Shown here one piece after another: positions 2,470-60,460 of a DNA stretch of 64,000 nt; position 1 is the first letter of the stretch; every line of letters begins with the position of its first letter. Source of the stretch: Octopus vulgaris (Eukaryota); the NCBI GenBank assembly GCA_951406725.2, contig OX597818.1:31434001-31498000 (forward strand). The letters are read 5' to 3'. Both the position numbers and the translations under genes were made by a program. The notes below the pieces were generated by a model. The model was not told where the DNA came from. It worked only from the letters and a program-made list of their open reading frames with translations, and did not search any database.

Positions 2470-2556
<87 letters not shown>

Positions 2557-2749
2557 GTGTGAATGCAATAGAAACGATTCTGCTTTATGGGGTAAGATCT
2601 ATAACAAAGATGTAATTTTTTTCTATATGTCAAATACTCTGAATTTCTCGAAATTCTGGCATAGGATATTTGTATCTACTTGTCATGCATAAGATCTGTA
2701 TTCTACTTACGTTTACTGATGTCTTAATGTTGAATATTGATGACCTCTA

Positions 2750-6040: not shown

Positions 6041-6258
6041 CTCTTTTACTCTTTTACTCTGTACTTGTTTCAGTCATTTGACTGCGGCCATGCTGGAGCA
6101 CCGCCTTTAGTCGAGCAACTCGACCCCAGGACTTATTTTTTTGTAAGCCCAGTACTTATTCTATCGGTCTCTTTTTGCCGAACCGCTAAGTGACGGGGAC
6201 GTAAACACACCAGCATCGGTTGTCAAGCAATGCTAGGGGAACAAACACAGACACACAA

Positions 6259-6311
<53 letters not shown>

Positions 6312-6476
6312 CGACAGGCTTCTTTCAGTTTCCGTCTACCAAATCCACTCACAAGGCATTGGTCGGCCCGGGGCTATAGCAGAAGACACTTTGCCCAAGA
6401 TGCCACGCAGTGGGACTGAACCCGGAACCATGTGGTTGGTTAGCAAGCTACTTACCACACAGCCACTCCTGCGCCT
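6041..6476 (-). mobile_element. SINE family A, full length
   Basis: Full head-to-tail match to the other family A copies; short TSD ATGGATA (6034-6040 and 6477-6483). Confidence 0.85.
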
Positions 6477-6960
6477 ATGGATAGAATTTTCTTATATGTT
6501 TTATAAATTTGCGTTTTTTAAGCTTCCTCACTAATATAATGCCTTCTCGCAGTTGATGCGGTAATCGATCAACAAATAAGCTGTTATCTATGCAATGGAG
6601 TTTCTAAATTCTTTGGAACGTTGTTTCCTCACCAAGTACGGCCTAAATCCAGAGTTCCCATAAAGTTTTATTGAAATTTACTTCAGCTTAAGTTGTACAT
6701 TAATACCAGTTTAATGAACAATGGTACTGAATTACAAATTCACCTGGTTGTCATTAGGCAGAAGTTAATTTTATATGTATGACACCTCTAATATTCAGTA
6801 AAATTGTTTTGTAATGTCAGTCAACAAACCATAGAGTCAAGTACTGAAGATTTTCGGCTTACAAGACAGTTAACTGTATGTGGGTTGCTCAGGGTAAGAA
6901 CAGCTAACAATATTCATGTATAATCTCCTTAGAAAAAAATCTTGTAAATTTGTATATAAC

Positions 6961-8057: not shown

Positions 8058-8090
8058 TTTAACGTTTCGAGCGGAGCTCTTCGTCAGAAA
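8058..8090 (-). ncRNA. Minimal type I hammerhead motif inside a non-autonomous element (about 7955-8163)
   Basis: Reverse strand TTT-CTGACGA-A-GAGC(TCC)GCTC-GAAA-CG-TT-AAA; the element's 3' end abuts (TA)n. Confidence 0.65.
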
Positions 8091-11188: not shown

Positions 11189-11841
<653 letters not shown>

Positions 11842-13693: not shown

Positions 13694-14572
13694 AACTGTC
13701 TTCGAAGACACATTATCGTTCAATGCTCGAAATGAGGAGTAGATACACAGCCGACAAATGATGAAGGGTCGTTTTTTATGTCACTTGTTCTGATTTCCAT
13801 TTGTTTCTCTCGTTTGCGTATTGAACTAATTTCTTTTCATATTTCATGTTGTTTACTGTTGGTGACGTCCTGTACCCATACATACATACATACATACATA
13901 CATACATACACACACACACGCCACGCATCCATTTCCAAGTAAGTTTATCTTAATCTTTTTGATGCGACTCTACTCTATACTGTTTTTTTCCTTCATCGTT
14001 TTCATTCTCATCCTTTCTCTAATTCCCTGTTTTCTCCCCTTCGCCGTTTTCTATATCTCTCACTCTATCCCTCTTCCTCCTTTTCTCTCTCTCTCTCTCT
14101 CGTTGCTCACATGTGACCATCGTCTATTTTTCTTATCTTCGCGTGATCATCTTTCTTTTCTTTCATGACTATCCAAAGGACTGGACGTATCCTATCTCTC
14201 TCTTCTATCTTTTCTCTTGTCAAAGAAAATATTTCTCCAGCGTTCGCTATTTTACCCTCGTTCTGGTCAAACGATCCTCCATGTTTGTTTTCGTCCGGTT
14301 TCCTTGTGTGTATCCACTGTTCTGTTTTTGTTCCCAACTTTGATCCTCCATAAATCCCAAATTTTATTTTGGTACTTATGGGAGCAACTGTCTTCGAAGA
14401 CTCACATTGTCGTTCAATACTCGAAATGAGCAGATAGACAGACGACATCTGATGAAGGATCTTTCTTTGTGTTACTTGTCCTGTTTTCCATTTGTTTCTC
14501 TCGCTGTTTGCGTATTGAACTCATTTGTTTTCGTGTTTCATGTTGTTTACTGTTAGTGACGCCCTATACCTA
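13694..14572 (+). mobile_element. Non-coding element with about 185-bp direct terminal repeats (pLTR-like), family F
   Basis: Direct repeats 13694-13880 and 14386-14572 flank a pyrimidine-rich interior; each repeat carries GAAA...(C)TGATGA in reversed order. Confidence 0.7.
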
Positions 14573-19449: not shown

Positions 19450-19735
19450 ATACACACATACGCACGGGCACCTTCGTTTTGGGATCACCAATACTTTATC
19501 ATCTCCCTTTCTTTCAACCGCTCCTGTCAAACCATTTTTTTCCTAACCAGTCGCCATGCTTGGCCACTAAATCCACAAGTTTTTAAAATTCTCTCTCTTT
19601 ATTTTCTCTTATTCCTTTCTGCTGAAGAGCGTAGGCTCGAACCGTAAAAGACTTTCTCACTTCCCTGAGCGTCAAACTAATACACCTGCTTGTTCATACG
19701 CCTGTCTTCGTCTTGTTTTTCTGTAAATTTCAACA
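19450..19735 (+). mobile_element. Family J HHR-bearing element
   Basis: CTTT-CTGCTGA-A-GAGC(GTAG)GCTC-GAAC-CG-TA-AAAG at 19615-19650; upstream TTTTGGGATCACCAAT is shared with the 39655 copy. Confidence 0.65.
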
Positions 19736-28488: not shown

Positions 28489-28854
28489 CACACACGCGCA
28501 CACACACACATCTATGTATGTATGTGTGGTGTGTACGACCCCAGACGATGAGGTAGGCTAGCCCAATACGTAGATATATAGGGAGAAGTCTAGACGTCGT
28601 TGAGTAGCGATAGAGAAGAGCAGAGTTGTGTAGAGGTCATCCGAACGTGAGACATAACAGTATGTATGTATGTATGTATGTATGTATGTATGTATGTATG
28701 TATGTATGTATGTATGTATGTGTGTATGTATGTATGTATGTATGTATGTATGTGTATGTATGTATGTATGTATGTGTGTATGTATGTGTGTATGTATGTA
28801 TGTATGTATGTATGTATGTATGTATGTATGATGTTTGTATGTGTGTATATATAC

Positions 28855-29787
28855 CAGCTATAGAACATGTGATCCGCAGGCAGGAACTCAAGATACAGGG
28901 TGGTCCACACCAGCCCGAACCTGAGGAAATTTCTGTCGAGGAAAATTATCACAGAAAATATCGTGGGATGCACACTAACCAACTGTCTAATCAAGGACAT
29001 CAACATATACTTGTGGGCCTATGCGTATACAGAGTAGTCTGCAGTAAATATGGAGCATCCTGCATCAGGTGTACCACTAGTAAATTGCACATCTGTATAA
29101 AAGAACACATGCACACGGACACTTCAATAAAGAAACACCTAAACGTGCAAAACTCAGAATTGTATACCATTCACATTTCTTGGACCTCTCTTTCTTTAGC
29201 TCCCACTATTTCCCACTTGTTTATCTCCCCTGTACCCTTTTCTTTGTCTCTGATTTTTTTTATAATCCTTCAATCCCGCTGTCCCCTACCAATCTCTCAT
29301 CCTTCCATGTGACCGGTGTCCGGCCAGCCATGATCTTTCTTTCTTGGCCTGACTGCCGACCGCCAACACCTCTTGTGTCCATCTCCCATGTTCCTACCTT
29401 TAGGCTTTCACTTCATACATGCCAACTCAATTTGATTCGTTCTCAGTCGAAAGACCCCTGTTGTTATTACTTGTTGTTTGTATTCGTAATTGTGTACAAT
29501 GTTCTCCGTTATTTTGTATGTTTTGTTTTGTCTTTGTTGCCTTATACATTCGCTGGCTTTCTTACAAAGGGGCCTAATACTCTTAGCTTAGACTTTTTGG
29601 GGAGCAACCAGATCGAACCATCTCAATTATAAATGCCCGAAATGGTCGTGACTTCAGCAACTTGACTGATGAAAGAAAGCCACGAAGGACCCGTCTATTT
29701 TTGCCTGTTCTTCCAATTGTTTCTCTTGTCCGCATTTGTATCGTCTAACTGTCCAAACGCTTTAATGCCCTTTATTGCGTTTTTGTT

Positions 29788-29790
<3 letters not shown>
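28855..29790 (+). mobile_element. 3' part of a Penelope-like element: GIY-YIG remnant plus 3' UTR/pLTR (family H)
   Basis: CVYRVVCSKYGASCIRCTTSKLHICIKEH (about 29020-29110) matches the PLE GIY-YIG pattern VY.I.C..C...YIG.T.R.LH.RIKEH; the UTR contains reversed-order HHR strands at 29617-29672; ends at (TA)n. Confidence 0.7.
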
Positions 29791-29832
<42 letters not shown>

Positions 29833-31748: not shown

Positions 31749-31954
31749 TTTTATTTTCCACTCTATGGAACCATTACCGACATGAGTAGGACACACAGAA
31801 TTACCAAACGAAAACGTTTACCCATGTTTAACGACTTCTTGTAAGCACGGGCATCGAATACAGACCGCTCTGTTAGCCGGCATCTGGAACCAAACCGAGA
31901 GCAAACACGTTATCCTCGTGGATAATATGTCCCTGCAAAGTAATATGTATATAT

Positions 31955-32358
31955 ACTCTTTTACTTGTTTCAGTCATTTGACTGCGGCCATGCTGGAGCA
32001 ACGCCTTTAGTTGAGCAAATCGACCCCAGGACTTATTCTTTGTAAGCCTAGTACTTATTCTATCGGTTTTTTTTGCTGGACCGCTAAGTTACGGGGACGT
32101 AAACTCCCCAGCATCGGTTGTCTAGCGATTTTGGGGAGACAAACACAGATACACAAACATATACACACAGATACATATGTATACATATACATATATATGA
32201 TGTAATTCTTTGTTTCCATCTACCAAAACCATTCACAAGGCTTTGGTCGGCCTGAGGCTATAGTAGAAGACATTTGCGCAAGGTGCCACGCAGTGGGACT
32301 GAACCCGGAACCATGTGGCTGGTAAGCAAGCCACATACCACACAGCCACTCCTGTGCC
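31955..32358 (-). mobile_element. SINE family A
   Basis: Full-length homology; short head duplication at 32364-32380. Confidence 0.85.
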
Positions 32359-36855: not shown

Positions 36856-37889
36856 TCCTTTACATATTGGTGGCCTTACCCCATGTCTTTTATGAGTTCT
36901 CTGCTATATAAGATCGATGATACTTAAATATTCGGTAACTCAAAACTCTATTTTACACAATAGCATTTTACTAACTTCCTCGTACATCGTTTCTAAAGGG
37001 GAAAACTAGCGATTTATTTTAATTAAAACGAAGCTAATTTTACGTAGAATTTATTTCTTATCCATATTTTCTTATAAGAACCTATCCGGCGGTAATTTCT
37101 TTGAGAGATTTACATGCACTAGAGCACTCTATATTAACATTATTTTTTATGGAATTTACTAAAGAAAATATGGACATATGCGAAGAAATTGTATTTGACA
37201 TTGGCGCCGTCGTTTTCTTATTTAATCCCGTCATATTTTTCTCTTTTTGGTTTGAGTATGTGTTCAAAATATGTTTGGATTTAGCTTGAATATATTTTTA
37301 AGAAAACAAAATGTGACCTTTCTAAATATACCACACCGCCATAGCGCCCATTGATACTTACTTCCTCCTTGCAACTCGTAATGACGTCCAGTTTAAAGAC
37401 AGCTGCCTGAGTTCAAGCCTGTCGATTTTCAGTGAAAGAAGTTTGTTACGAGAAAAGAAAGAATTTCTAAATAACGAAATGCTTTCAGGAATTTCGTAAA
37501 AATGTAATGATTAGTACCAAAATTGAATGAAGAAGATACCTTGGATATTAAGCAAAAACAGAATCACATAAATATGCCAAGCGAATGAAAGAAAACCACG
37601 GATAAAGATAAGCACGAAATTGAATCCAGTGGAGGGATCTGTTTCGTTTTGATTTGCGATATTAGTCCCTCCTCATAAAGGAGCTCTGCCATTCTATACT
37701 TTATGAATGATTAAATAAAGCATTAATTAAGGCATTGCTTTATTATTGTTTGTGTGTGCCAATGAAAGTTATGTTCCATGTTATCATTGCAAGTATGGAC
37801 AGATTAACGATCATTTTAGTGCCAGCTATAGCGTGATAATAACAAGAATAACAGTAATAAAAAAGGGAAATAGTGAAAACAATAAAAAA

Positions 37890-38499
37890 GATGACGACGA
37901 CGACGACGACGATGACGACGATGATGATGATGGCAACGATGGTAGCGACGGTAGTGGCAATGATAGTTATGATGATAATGACGACGGTAGTAGTGATGAT
38001 GGTGATGATGGTGATGGTGATGATGGTGATGGTGATAATGGTGATGAGGGTGATGAGGGTGATGGTGATAATGGTGATGGTGGTGATGGTGATGATGATA
38101 ATGGTGATGGTGATGATGATAATTGGTGATGGTGGTGGTGATGGTGGTAGTGATGAGGGTGATGGTGATGATGGTGATGATGGTGATGGTGATGATGATA
38201 ATGGTGATGGTGATGATGGTGATGGTGATGATGGTGATGTTCATGAGGGTGATGGTGATGATGGTGATGGTGATGGTGATGATGGTGATGGTGGTTGTAA
38301 GGATGGCAATGATGACGACGACATGGCGGTGTTAGTGGCAGTGACGGTGGAGGTAGTGGTGGCATTGTTGTTGTTGGTGGTGGTGATGATGACGATGACG
38401 ATGATGACACAGGTAGTGATGATAATCATGATGACAACGACGACGACGACGATGATGATTTTGATGATGATAATGAGGATGATGATGATAATGAGGATG

Positions 38500-38555
<56 letters not shown>

Positions 38556-38560
38556 AATGA
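37890..38560. repeat. Compound (GAT/GGT/GAC)n trinucleotide array
   Basis: Read directly from the sequence. Confidence 0.95.
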
Positions 38561-39231
38561 TAGTGTCACCCTTCCCGCCGCTGCAACGCCTGTCAATGCT
38601 GTACTTCTCACGGCTGCTCTTCCTACCACTGTTTGCTACTGCTGCTGCTACCGCTGCAGATAACAAACACCAGTGTAGTAGTGGTGGGTATTTGGGGTTT
38701 ATCACGCTGGTCATCGTCGCTCTCGTTGTAGTTGTTGTTATTGCCTCTGTTGTTGCTATTGCTATTTTGCTACTGTCTTTGTCGCTTTATAACGAAATTT
38801 TTAAAAAAAACAAACACAAACGGAAAAAGCAAAAAACAAACAAAAAACAAACAAACAAACGAATATCTTGGGTTATAATAATACCAAGAATAAAACTATA
38901 AATTCTAATAAATAAAATGGATTTAATCTCCTTTAGAGCGTATTGTCAGGAAATGTTGCTAGTTTACAACTGAACGTAGGGAGCTGATTAAAAATTTTGG
39001 ATTTTATAAAAGCATTTAAATTAATCACGGAATCAACATGTACCGTAAAAAGCAACAATCTTAATTTTGAGGACAGAAAGTGAGACTTATTCTTCTACGG
39101 ATGGTTATAACTACGGCTTAAGATCTATGAAATGAAAATTACTACGGATGACCGTAAAGGCAACTTTTAATCTGGAAATTTATAAATATTTTATTTTAAA
39201 TGTGAAGCTTAAAATTCAATACAAGAACCAC

Positions 39232-44124: not shown

Positions 44125-44357
44125 TATTTCTTTACTAACCACAAGGGGCTAAACTCAGAGGGGACAAACAAGGACAGAGAAACGGATTAAGTCGATTACA
44201 TCGACCCCAGTGCGTAACTGGTACTTAATTTATCGAACCCGAAAGGATGAAAGGCAAAGTCGACCTAGGCGGAATTTGAACTCAGAACACAAAGACAGAC
44301 GAAATAACGCTAAGCATTTCGCCCGGCGTGCTAACATTTTTGAAATCTCGCCGCCTT
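44125..44357 (-). mobile_element. SINE family B, tail B1
   Basis: Full-length homology to 5614-5844. Confidence 0.85.
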
Positions 44358-44380
44358 ATACACACACATATAGAGGTATA

Positions 44381-44700
44381 TGTAAACAGTAAAAATAAAT
44401 ACAGACATGGACAAGAACATGAAACATCAAAGAGACGACACAAGAACCACAGGACGGGACATTCGAAGCCCTCAGTCATCAGTCAAGAACCAGATCATCT
44501 TCGCAATTTCGGCTATATATGGGTACAGGAAATAAAAAAAAAACGTACACACAATGAGAAACGAAAACATAAAAACATAAACATAGAAAGCGAAATTTTT
44601 TTTCGAACAGCATAAAGAACATTCCTTTCATCAGTTGTGTCTGTTTCGTTCTACTCTGAGTTTCGAAACTCTCAGAGAGCAATAACGAATGATAACTAAA
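44381..44700 (-). mobile_element. Fused pLTR-like fragments: F-related (44700-44514) plus family G (44513-44381)
   Basis: 44381-44513 is a near-identical reverse complement of 45837-45970; 44514-44700 ends (minus strand) in CCTGTACCCATATA like family F and carries GAAA...CTGATGA. Confidence 0.75.
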
Positions 44701-45005: not shown

Positions 45006-45061
45006 TATATATATGTATACATATATATATCAGTATATATATATATGTATATACATATATA

Positions 45062-45967
45062 AATCAGCCGAAATTGCTAAGATGATCTGGTTCTTGACTG
45101 ATGACTGAGGGCTTCGAATGTCCCGTCCTGTGGTTCTTGTGTCGTCTCTGTGGTGTTTCATGTTCTTGTCCATGTCTGTAATTATTTTTACTGTTTACAT
45201 ATATAATCGGCGGCTACGTATCCACAATTGTCCTTATACGATAAGTATATTTTTTCTCTAGCATTGATACGATTCTTGATCTGTCTCTTTCTCTCTCTCT
45301 CTCTCCTCCCTTATTCCCCTTCCTTTCTTTCCCTCTCCATCCGTCTTTCCCCCCCCTTCTACGTTTCTCTATCTCTCTCACCTCCAGTCCCCTCGGTCTG
45401 TCTCTTTCTTCTCCTCCCTCGTCCACCTTCTCTCTCTTTTCATCTGTCCCTTTCTCCTGTCTTTTGTTCTCACGTGACCGCTAGCCACTGCTGAGCGCTC
45501 TTTTCGTTCCAGCAGTCGCCGAAGCAACACGTATTTGTTCGTCTCCCTGCGGCCATTAGGCACAACTTCATAAGCCAGCCCTAAACTCAACTCGTCCTGT
45601 CGAAAGACCCTTGTCCTACGTCCTGGTTTTGTTTTGTTTTTTATTTTTACCGTTATTGTTTTTACGTTTTTGTATTCTTATTGGTGTCACGTATTCTGTA
45701 TTTTTGTTCGTGTACTTCGTTCGTTTTCCGTCCTCGTGTTGTATACATTCGAAGCTTTCTTCCAGGGGATCTAATGCGCTTGGCTTAGATTTCCCTTGGC
45801 GGGCTGTCCAAATCGGAGCAATCATCAAGATTAATCAGCCGAAATTGCTAAGATGATCTGGTTCTTGACTGATGACTGAGGGCTTCGAATGTCCCGTCCT
45901 GTGGTTCTTGTGTCGTCTCTGTGGTGTTTCATGTTCTTGTCCATGTCTGTAATTATTTTTACTGTTT

Positions 45968-45970
<3 letters not shown>
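45062..45970 (+). mobile_element. Non-coding element with 138-bp direct terminal repeats (family G), flanked by (TA)n
   Basis: Apparently identical repeats at 45062-45199 and 45833-45970; the interior shares GTCGAAAGACCC and CTAAT..CTT.GCTTAGA motifs with the family H PLE 3' UTR. Confidence 0.8.
45817..45880 (+). ncRNA. Candidate non-circularly permuted hammerhead ribozyme
   Basis: AGCAA-TC-A-TCAAGA ... TCAG-CC-GAAA-TTGCT ... TCTTGA-CTGATGA-CTGA: stem III AGCAAT/ATTGCT, stem I TCAAGA/TCTTGA, stem II TCAG/CTGA. Confidence 0.55.
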
Positions 45971-46022
<52 letters not shown>

Positions 46023-48825: not shown

Positions 48826-48828
48826 TCG

Positions 48829-49038
<210 letters not shown>

Positions 49039-51747: not shown

Positions 51748-51884
51748 GCTGGAGTGGCTGTGTGGTAAGTAGCTTGCTTACCAACTACATGGTTCCAGGT
51801 TCAGTCCCACTGCGTGGCACTTTGGCCTCAGGCCGACCAGTCTTGTGAATAGATTTGGTAGACGGAAACTGAAAGAAGCCCATC

Positions 51885-51946
<62 letters not shown>

Positions 51947-52148
51947 TTTTTGTGTGTCTGTGTTTGTCCCCACCCCAGCATCGCTTGACACCGATGCTAG
52001 AGTGTTTACCCCGTAACTTAGCGGTTCGCCAAAAGAGGCTGATAGAATAAGTACTAGGCTTACAAATAATGACTCCTGGGGTCGATTTGCTTGACAAAAG
52101 GCGATGCTCCACCATGGTCACAGTCAAATGACTGAAACAAATAAAAAA
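51748..52148 (+). mobile_element. SINE family A with internal deletion
   Basis: Homologous to family A. Confidence 0.85.
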
Positions 52149-52149
52149 A

Positions 52150-52195
<46 letters not shown>

Positions 52196-60030: not shown

Positions 60031-60059
60031 TCGATCCTTCTAATATCCTTTCTACTAAA

Positions 60060-60460
60060 GGCGTAGGAGTGACTGTGTGGTAAGTAGCTTGCTTACGAAC
60101 TACATGGTTCCGGGTTCAGTCCCACTGCGTGGCACCGTGGGCAAGTGTCTTCTACTATAGCCTCGGGCCAACCAAAGCCTTCTGAGTGGATTTGGTAGAC
60201 AGAAACTGAAAGAAGCCCGTCGTATATATGTATATATATGTATATGTGTACATGTTTGTGTGTCTGTGTTTGTCTCCCCAACATGGCTTGACAACCGATA
60301 CTGGTGTGTTTACGTCCCCGTAACATAGCGGCTCGGTAAAAGAGACTGATAGAATAAGTACTAGGCTTACAAAAAATAAGTCCTGGGGTCGATGTGTTCG
60401 ACTAGAGCCGGTGCTCCAGCATGGCCACAGTCAAATGACTGAAACAAGTAAAAGAGTAAA
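60060..60460 (+). mobile_element. SINE family A inserted into the tail of a minus-strand family B copy (to about 60660)
   Basis: Full-length family A; TAAAGGC is duplicated at both ends; the flanks rejoin as a B2-like tail. Confidence 0.85.

Follow-up and report, generated by a model that had tools for sequence, protein, structure and literature searches.

A putative four-strand, non-circular hammerhead-like motif in a probable terminal repeat of a Penelope-like element of Octopus vulgaris

As far as its available text goes, the sole systematic study of hammerhead permutation (Eckert 2023; PMC10085705) sets out six types on the assumption that the A9/10.1 block is never interrupted. Type SGC (HRIMA-1 and variants), in which the strands with the cleavage site (S), GAAA (G) and CUGANGA (C) follow in that order, has a short linker between stems I and II, a helix that joins the outer ends of these two stems, and two pseudoknots in the core. 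Type CSG (CSG-1 and CSG-2), known from two soil-metagenome sequences, runs through the same strand cycle with a 5-nt linker, an intact block C and a chain that opens after stem III, and both RNAs cleaved in vitro, at 0.004 and 0.026 per min. The motifs described in the available text come almost all from metatranscriptomes, those of SGC order without exception, and GCS-1 alone from a known organism.

Penelope-like elements (PLEs) carry minimal type I hammerheads of the order C-G-S with a rudimentary stem III, which lie in a terminal repeat about 100 nt from the element end, have a G10.1-C11.1 pair and can accommodate, before position 10.1, a base after position 9 that stays unpaired (Cervera and de la Pena 2014; PMC4209133). 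Naiads are said to lack canonical hammerheads, and their 'HHR_core' and 'HHR_half_core' matches, with eight half cores flagged, are recorded in the available text as misfits to hammerhead descriptors, with no fold proposed (Craig et al. 2021; PMC8557442). A 2026 retrozyme preprint mentions, in the part available, type I alone for PLEs. With subscription papers and bioRxiv supplements (for example, 10.64898/2026.07.22.740005) outside the scope of our literature search, we found no paper that ties PLEs or Naiads to SGC or CSG hammerheads, and no precedent for a hammerhead opened at A9/10.1.

Here we describe a hammerhead-like motif, f29, at 29602-29672 on the plus strand of a 64-kb window of the O. 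vulgaris genome, the window being the whole stretch of DNA that was analysed. The motif shares with type SGC the block order, the short linker, the joining helix and the two core pseudoknots, but the 5′ strand of its stem II is detached from CUGANGA and placed first, and both strands of its extra helix continue into stem III by way of a kink-turn-like loop. With type CSG it has in common the strand cycle, the linker length and its occurrence in DNA, whereas its chain opens after A9 and its block C is not intact. Like the minimal type I PLE hammerheads, it lies in a terminal repeat at a similar distance from the element end, with a G10.1-C11.1 pair and the same tolerance next to it; unlike them, it has a full stem III and a non-circular order. 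It sits in animal genomic DNA, in the tail of a retroelement, in contrast to the mostly metatranscriptomic motifs of Eckert. By eye, the published tails of Naiad_Ovul and Naiad_Obim (PMC8557442) resemble it in their four strands, their kink-turn-like loop and insertion into (TA)n. We think it likely that f29 belongs to a decayed 3′ terminal repeat of a high-copy PLE family, whose intact copies would encode a self-cleaving hammerhead built from four strands.

Strands, helices and the position of stem II

The hammerhead core of f29 is complete (CUGANGA, GAAA and UH), and the three strands first picked out from the letters alone (ACCA-UC-UCAA, GAAA-UGGU and UUGA-CUGAUGA) are indeed present. The 5′ strand of stem III with U16.1-C17 occupies 29617-29622, where a cut after 29622 is predicted by analogy to known hammerheads, and is followed by the 3′ strand of stem I (29623-29628) and a linker of 5 nt (29629-29633), equal in length to that of two further families of the window, G and H, and of CSG-1 and CSG-2 (PMC10085705). 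The segment 29634-29646 holds the 3′ strand of stem II (29634-29638), GAAA (29639-29642) and the 3′ strand of stem III; the 5′ strand of stem I and the CUGAUGA core (29666-29672) lie at 29660-29672, with A9 as the end of the motif. Stems I, II and III have 5/6, 4/5 and 4/4 pairs, which become 6/6, 5/5 and 4/4 when the letters at 29627 (stem I) and 29603 (stem II) are replaced by those of the majority of copies. The order is thus cleavage site, GAAA, CUGANGA, that of type SGC, and differs from the C, G, S order with rudimentary stem III of a minimal type I PLE hammerhead. When the window was scanned for motifs of any block order whose stems I and III each had at least 4 bp, two matches were obtained, with cores at 29666 and 45869, both S-G-C, compared with 0.07 S-G-C and 0.27 any-order matches per window in 30 shuffles. 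Rfam returned no match at gathering score in the 64-kb window, and a single irrelevant one (E 7.4) for 29400-29800. The window is AT-rich, with 33-43% GC in all 2-kb bins but one and many microsatellites and repeats.

The sequence-only reading had taken stem II to be unpaired in this old copy. We find that its 3′ strand pairs with a fourth strand upstream, at 29602-29606. This partner was first noticed by eye in Naiad tails and then tested by script in f29, G, H and L008 (a metagenome contig discussed below); it is present in all four, with 4/5, 5/5, 4/5 and 5/5 pairs, and sits 1 nt before the distal helix in each. As background, local 5-mers pair at 4/5 or better in 1-5% of cases. Between f29 and G, changes on both sides that keep the pairing are found at 3/5 pairs of stem II, 2/4 of stem III and 1/6 of stem I, and family H adds further pair types. 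Since the partner of stem II is upstream, the RNA chain is open between A9 and stem II. Judged by these pairings, the motif is a four-strand, non-circular hammerhead-like layout, and stem II has not simply decayed; it had been sought on the wrong side.

We consider it very improbable that f29 is an ordinary SGC hammerhead of Eckert's kind with block C intact, whose downstream stem II has merely decayed, as the first reading implied. Some pairing downstream of the core does exist: 2/6 pairs after a 1-nt spacer in f29 (3/6 with majority letters, the change at 29633 adding one), 3/4 in H, and 4/4 in G in two odd registers that need a 5-nt spacer or a 2-nt bulge. Moreover, Naiad_Ppla and Naiad-1_Dst seem, by eye, to be true long-range SGC forms. 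Yet the bases after CUGAUGA offer no single register common to f29, G, H and L008, whereas pairing with the upstream strand keeps to a single register throughout these sequences, and f29 and G differ there by three double changes. An unbroken block C, with a stem II strand within 0-2 nt of CUGANGA, was not found in f29, and the best partner lies upstream, as judged with the window's own letters at 29674 and 29677, positions outside the majority changes listed. A downstream stem II of 6 bp, set off from the core by a 1-nt spacer, was dropped once the upstream strand proved to pair in one register.

The distal helix (29608-29613 with 29653-29658) has 3/6 pairs, or 5/6 when majority letters are used, and connects stem I to stem II at their outer ends, as the extra helix of types SGC and CSG does. 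It is separated from stem III by the kink-turn-like loop, whose short strand (29614-29616) ends in GA and whose long strand (29647-29652) is a 3-nt bulge followed by GA. From 5′ to 3′, the proposed chain would therefore run stem II, distal helix, kink, stem III, UH, stem I, 5-nt linker, stem II, GAAA, stem III, kink, distal helix, stem I, CUGANGA, which would be the strand cycle of the SGC and CSG types (PMC10085705) with its opening moved to the A9/10.1 step.

Sister families, other copies and the coding relic

The motif belongs to a high-copy non-coding 3′ part (29194-29789, plus strand) that resembles a 3′ UTR or pseudo-LTR and comprises a pyrimidine tract, a short shared motif, the ribozyme-like motif and a U-rich tail; a TATG/TA microsatellite (28659-28853, limits approximate) flanks the insertion on its 5′ side. 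The upstream homology to family G that had been proposed is borne out, at 64% identity over 309 columns (E 6e-17). On the plus strand, family G has a four-strand motif at 45802-45875 (stem II 5/5, distal helix 7/8, stem III 4/4, stem I 6/6) with an extra base after C17, within a partial tandem (45059-45976) made of a 5′-truncated copy (45059-45205) and a 770-nt unit; an inverted 5′-truncated copy lies at 44357-44514 (minus) and a G-like tail without core at 48828-48924 (plus). Family H has its four-strand motif at 14382-14455 on the plus strand (stem II 4/5, distal helix 6/6, stem III 4/4, stem I 5/6), with a 2-nt bulge and C in place of U16.1, and a truncated upstream sister (13694-13887, plus) with a decayed core, whose pre-GAAA strand would complete stem II. 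Both H copies carry CA in place of UH at the cut site (14405-14406 in the complete one). In family G, the cleavage strand can pair with the core strand in a long competing hairpin (45814-45890), a possible off state.

All three families share a YAYGTGACC motif (29306-29314, plus, in the f29 tail) 272-331 nt before the ribozyme-like motif and after the pyrimidine tract: three of the five plus-strand matches, at 29306, 45471 and 14110, have that spacing. Each family terminates at a microsatellite, 94-117 nt beyond the core. Partial tandems of pseudo-LTR type are seen in G and H, and f29 is a single unit between TA-type repeats. Partial tandems, inverted truncated copies and microsatellite targets are described for PLEs (Craig 2021; PMC8557442). 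Because of the tandems, the inverted copy, the microsatellite ends and the shared upstream motif, the PLE identity of the tail is independent of its linkage to a GIY-YIG relic. The earlier tie between motif and PLEs therefore stands on other grounds, namely the partial-tandem sisters, the TA-microsatellite flanks and published Naiad tails of the same layout, and the argument from GIY-YIG linkage proved weak. The wider proposal that a Penelope-type tail holds a hammerhead-like motif in non-circular permutation gains from these same sister copies, flanks and Naiad tails.

The starts of truncated copies relative to the predicted cut, at +6, +13, +50 and -20 nt (two of four within 13 nt), are inconsistent and lend no support to the idea that such copies begin there. 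A further motif, near 44634 (minus), departs from the four-strand layout. The window also holds a conventional minimal type I hammerhead of PLE style at 8087 (minus; stem II of 4 bp), so type I and four-strand kinds coexist in this genome, and decayed look-alikes occur in other repeat families, at 19622 and 54205 (both plus). A dispersed repeat of 400 nt is present in many copies of 75-90% identity (243-639, 6053-6486, 11336-11802, 31943-32358, 51748-52191, 60050-60460 and others), and the 346-codon open frame at 37861-38898 (plus) consists of ATG/GAT-type triplet repeats and is no credible gene.

Contigs matching the stretch at 80% likeness numbered 2,145, 3,673, 2,874 and 1,697 in four runs. 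Among the 40 of 185 differences listed, seven positions in 29603-29687 differ from f29 in more than 90% of the depth, with 61-108 contigs per run. Four of these seven majority changes fall in predicted helices (29603, 29627, 29656 and 29658) and all four turn a mismatch into a Watson-Crick pair; the other three lie in linker or tail. Taken as isolated duplexes and added up, the four helices amount to -5.6 kcal/mol with the letters of f29 and to -20.7 kcal/mol with majority letters, from which we infer that the window copy has decayed; it is probably inactive. Core position 7 is C or A in the loose ends of other copies and, by eye, U or G in Naiad tails; hammerheads vary there too, and on account of this variability a box C/D reading of CUGA/UGAUGA was rejected. 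One subfamily among the loose ends has a different stem III strand. The z-scores from nested folding, a method that cannot model pseudoknots, show no signal, at +1.6 (f29) and +0.5 (G).

Upstream of the tail, a frameshifted GIY-YIG-like relic (28857-29186, plus), probably of a PLE, a group whose GIY-YIG endonuclease has a CCHH motif, retains a thumb- or linker-like part, C-x2-C, a degenerate YIG, EH and KKHL, with the end of the domain missing; indels at 28898 and 29023-29024 are seen against other copies. The GIY-YIG remnant proposed earlier is probably real: the translation of frame 3 (28857-29198) has an atlas match of 0.94 to a cluster in which 17% of members carry GIY-YIG, and among 1.8 billion proteins the relic aligns with P0003 (38% identity over 94 residues, E 4e-4), which keeps CxxC, YIG, EH and KKHL. 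That proposal found no echo in Pfam or NCBIfam, neither of which matched the relic protein P0001, and the protein search gave no match to P0001 among longer proteins. Residues 68-125 of P0003 matched no protein, an alignment of the two sequences used as query retrieved P0003 itself alone, and no P0003-related locus was found in prokaryote or viral contigs. A second hit, P0002, is a repeat protein and was dropped as a chance match. Pfam found no reverse transcriptase family among 86 of the 222 open frames, as expected for a 5′-truncated copy.

That relic and motif lie in one element, as the sequence-only reading had it, is called into question by a breakpoint at about 29175-29194 (plus) between low-copy coding relic and high-copy 3′ part. 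Summed depth, which does not equal copy number, rises 20-28 fold at 29175 in all four runs, and contigs leave from both sides: one follows the relic to 29193 and then departs, and two follow the tail up to 29194 and continue into 182 other letters. Among the 32 contig pieces listed, with 10,514 more beyond these, none bridges the junction with 31 letters on each side. The junction is either an internal deletion within one element or a join of two elements, and the deletion is favoured because both parts are on the same strand and in the right order with no microsatellite between them; on balance, we lean towards relic and tail having been linked in one element. By eye, and with two of the four Cys mutated, the relic has a short, Nematis-like linker spacing, unlike that of Naiad or Neptune (Craig 2021, Fig. 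S2); Nematis elements combine a C-terminal endonuclease with a short Cx2-5CxxC linker. The relic looks C-terminal, unlike the N-terminal endonuclease of Naiads such as Naiad_Ovul, a clade that also has a CxC motif and a C-terminal RT; it may not belong to the tail.

A kink-turn-like joint and a candidate mechanism

In f29 and G, the loop between the 4-bp stem III and the distal helix has a 3-nt bulge and then GA opposite GA; in H the bulge is of 2 nt. By definition, a kink-turn has two helices set apart by a 3-nt bulge and, after it, G.A and A.G pairs, with an included angle of about 50 degrees (PMC4316175); the f29 and G loops conform to that definition in sequence and may fold accordingly. 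In the crystal structure considered by Eckert (PMC10085705), the ends to be joined at stem III and the joining helix are far apart; a kink would bring the chain back, and a natural kink-turn within a hammerhead would speak to this geometric problem of short links. Descriptors of the four-strand layout match three times in the window, against 0.285 (200 shuffles) and 0.19 (100 shuffles) matches per shuffled window, counts that are not valid as p-values because the descriptors were written after the copies had been seen.

In the mechanism we propose, distal helix, kink-turn and stem III would form a rod. Its top loop would pair with the free tail on either side, stem II arising from the 5′ tail and stem I from the 3′ tail, which also carries in the core. 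The kink would bend the rod back and so place the tails within reach. Most likely, an intact tail would take up this fold as a monomer, with cleavage after C17 (29622). As has been proposed for other PLE hammerheads, cleavage could release the element RNA from read-through, longer or tandem transcripts; about 15 bp would still hold the two products together, and this might favour re-ligation. Since minimal PLE hammerheads carry an unpaired base between 9 and 10.1, the backbone at this point seems tolerant, and by analogy even a full break may be accommodated.

It is very unlikely that the four strands act only as a dimer, with the tails of one terminal repeat pairing to the loop of another copy. 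Dimers have been proposed for the minimal PLE hammerheads (PMC4209133), partial tandems are present here, and kink-less variants such as the published Naiad-4_Dst would be hard to fold in cis; against this, the stable 4-bp stem III, the distal helix and the kink-turn-like joint of the window families suit a monomer, and the upstream partial copies in the window are devoid of the 5′ strands that a partner would supply.

Several features speak against cleavage: C16.1 in both H copies, the extra base and the competing fold of G, the flat folding z-scores and the inconsistent starts of truncated copies. C16.1-type triplets slow hammerhead cleavage. The motif might accordingly be a hammerhead-derived element that no longer cuts, a kink-turn or pseudoknot platform for the element's RT/EN or for a host protein of the 15.5K/L7Ae type, which would position priming or protect the 3′ end. 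We regard this as unlikely. Kink-turns are protein-binding sites (PMC4316175), the core is carried by a free 3′ tail, and the cut site is altered in both sister families; but in unrelated sequences CUGANGA, GAAA, UH and the three stems occupy exactly the places required for catalysis, position 7 is free to vary, and CSG forms of the same element class match RNAs that cleave (PMC10085705). The self-cleaving monomer thus remains the reading we prefer.

L008 and the tails of published Naiads

A pattern scan in which part of stem I, GAAA and the core were fixed returned 11 loci in three collections. Ten are without the upstream strands and appear to be chance matches. The eleventh, the AT-rich metagenome contig L008, in which there is no long open frame, has a four-strand motif at 2520-2640 (minus) with UA at the cut site, a 6-bp stem III, a distal helix and an upstream stem II, none of them fixed by the search pattern; it is without a kink-turn. 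In an alternative fold of this eukaryote-like contig, a long hairpin conceals the core (z -2.6).

By eye, we compared the 3′ ends of 24 of the 54 published Naiad consensi, chosen mostly among those flagged (PMC8557442). Six have the four-strand layout (Obim, Ovul, Esco, 4_Dst, 3_Chem and 2_Movir), which so spans Naiads of cephalopods, cnidarians and ostracods, and Bfor has it with a stem I of 2 bp. Five, four of them nematode and one spider, have a complete type CSG with joining helix (Naiad_Parc, 2_Nbra, 3_Nbra, Hpol and Smim), and two (Naiad_Ppla and Naiad-1_Dst) an apparent long-range SGC, in which the cleavage block lies 250-330 nt further upstream, beyond another conserved motif. The layout of 2_Dst and 3_Dst is ambiguous, and eight of the 24 tails have no permuted layout in the displayed text. 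The kink-turn-like loop is confined to the two octopus Naiads (Ovul and Obim), the other four of the six four-strand tails being without it; the rod of Naiad-4_Dst is a nearly straight 14 bp and may not fold as a monomer. Seven of the eight 'half-core' Naiads can be read by eye as complete permuted motifs (four CSG, three four-strand) and one is ambiguous, so that permuted layouts may explain the reported lack of canonical hammerheads.

With these tails in hand, it is scarcely credible that short motifs came to be arranged in this way by chance in the AT-rich tail of a repeat, a reading that is largely refuted already. The helices are short, the descriptors post hoc, and neither folding z-scores nor Rfam give a signal; however, compensatory changes run across families, all four helix majority letters repair pairs, L008 is an independent match, and the layout recurs by eye in cephalopod, cnidarian and ostracod Naiads.

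Taking window families and published tails together, we are slightly inclined to a broader view, in which animal PLEs would be the natural genomic home of non-circular hammerheads. The cephalopod-like families would have a seventh, four-strand type opened in the core and bent back by a kink-turn, through which a host protein of the L7Ae type could control cleavage; Naiads would use four-strand, CSG or long-range SGC forms; and tails would have been swapped between PLE clades. If this is true, a hammerhead topology exists that was ruled out by assumption in the available text of the permutation study, and non-circular hammerheads gain a named host and a likely job. It would also bear on the puzzle of how Naiads thrive without canonical hammerheads (Craig et al.; PMC8557442). 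Eckert's CSG RNAs share, by eye, the layout of the nematode Naiad tails, and we would guess that they derive from nematode Naiads. Naiads with CSG tails are a likely host class for Eckert's CSG ribozymes.
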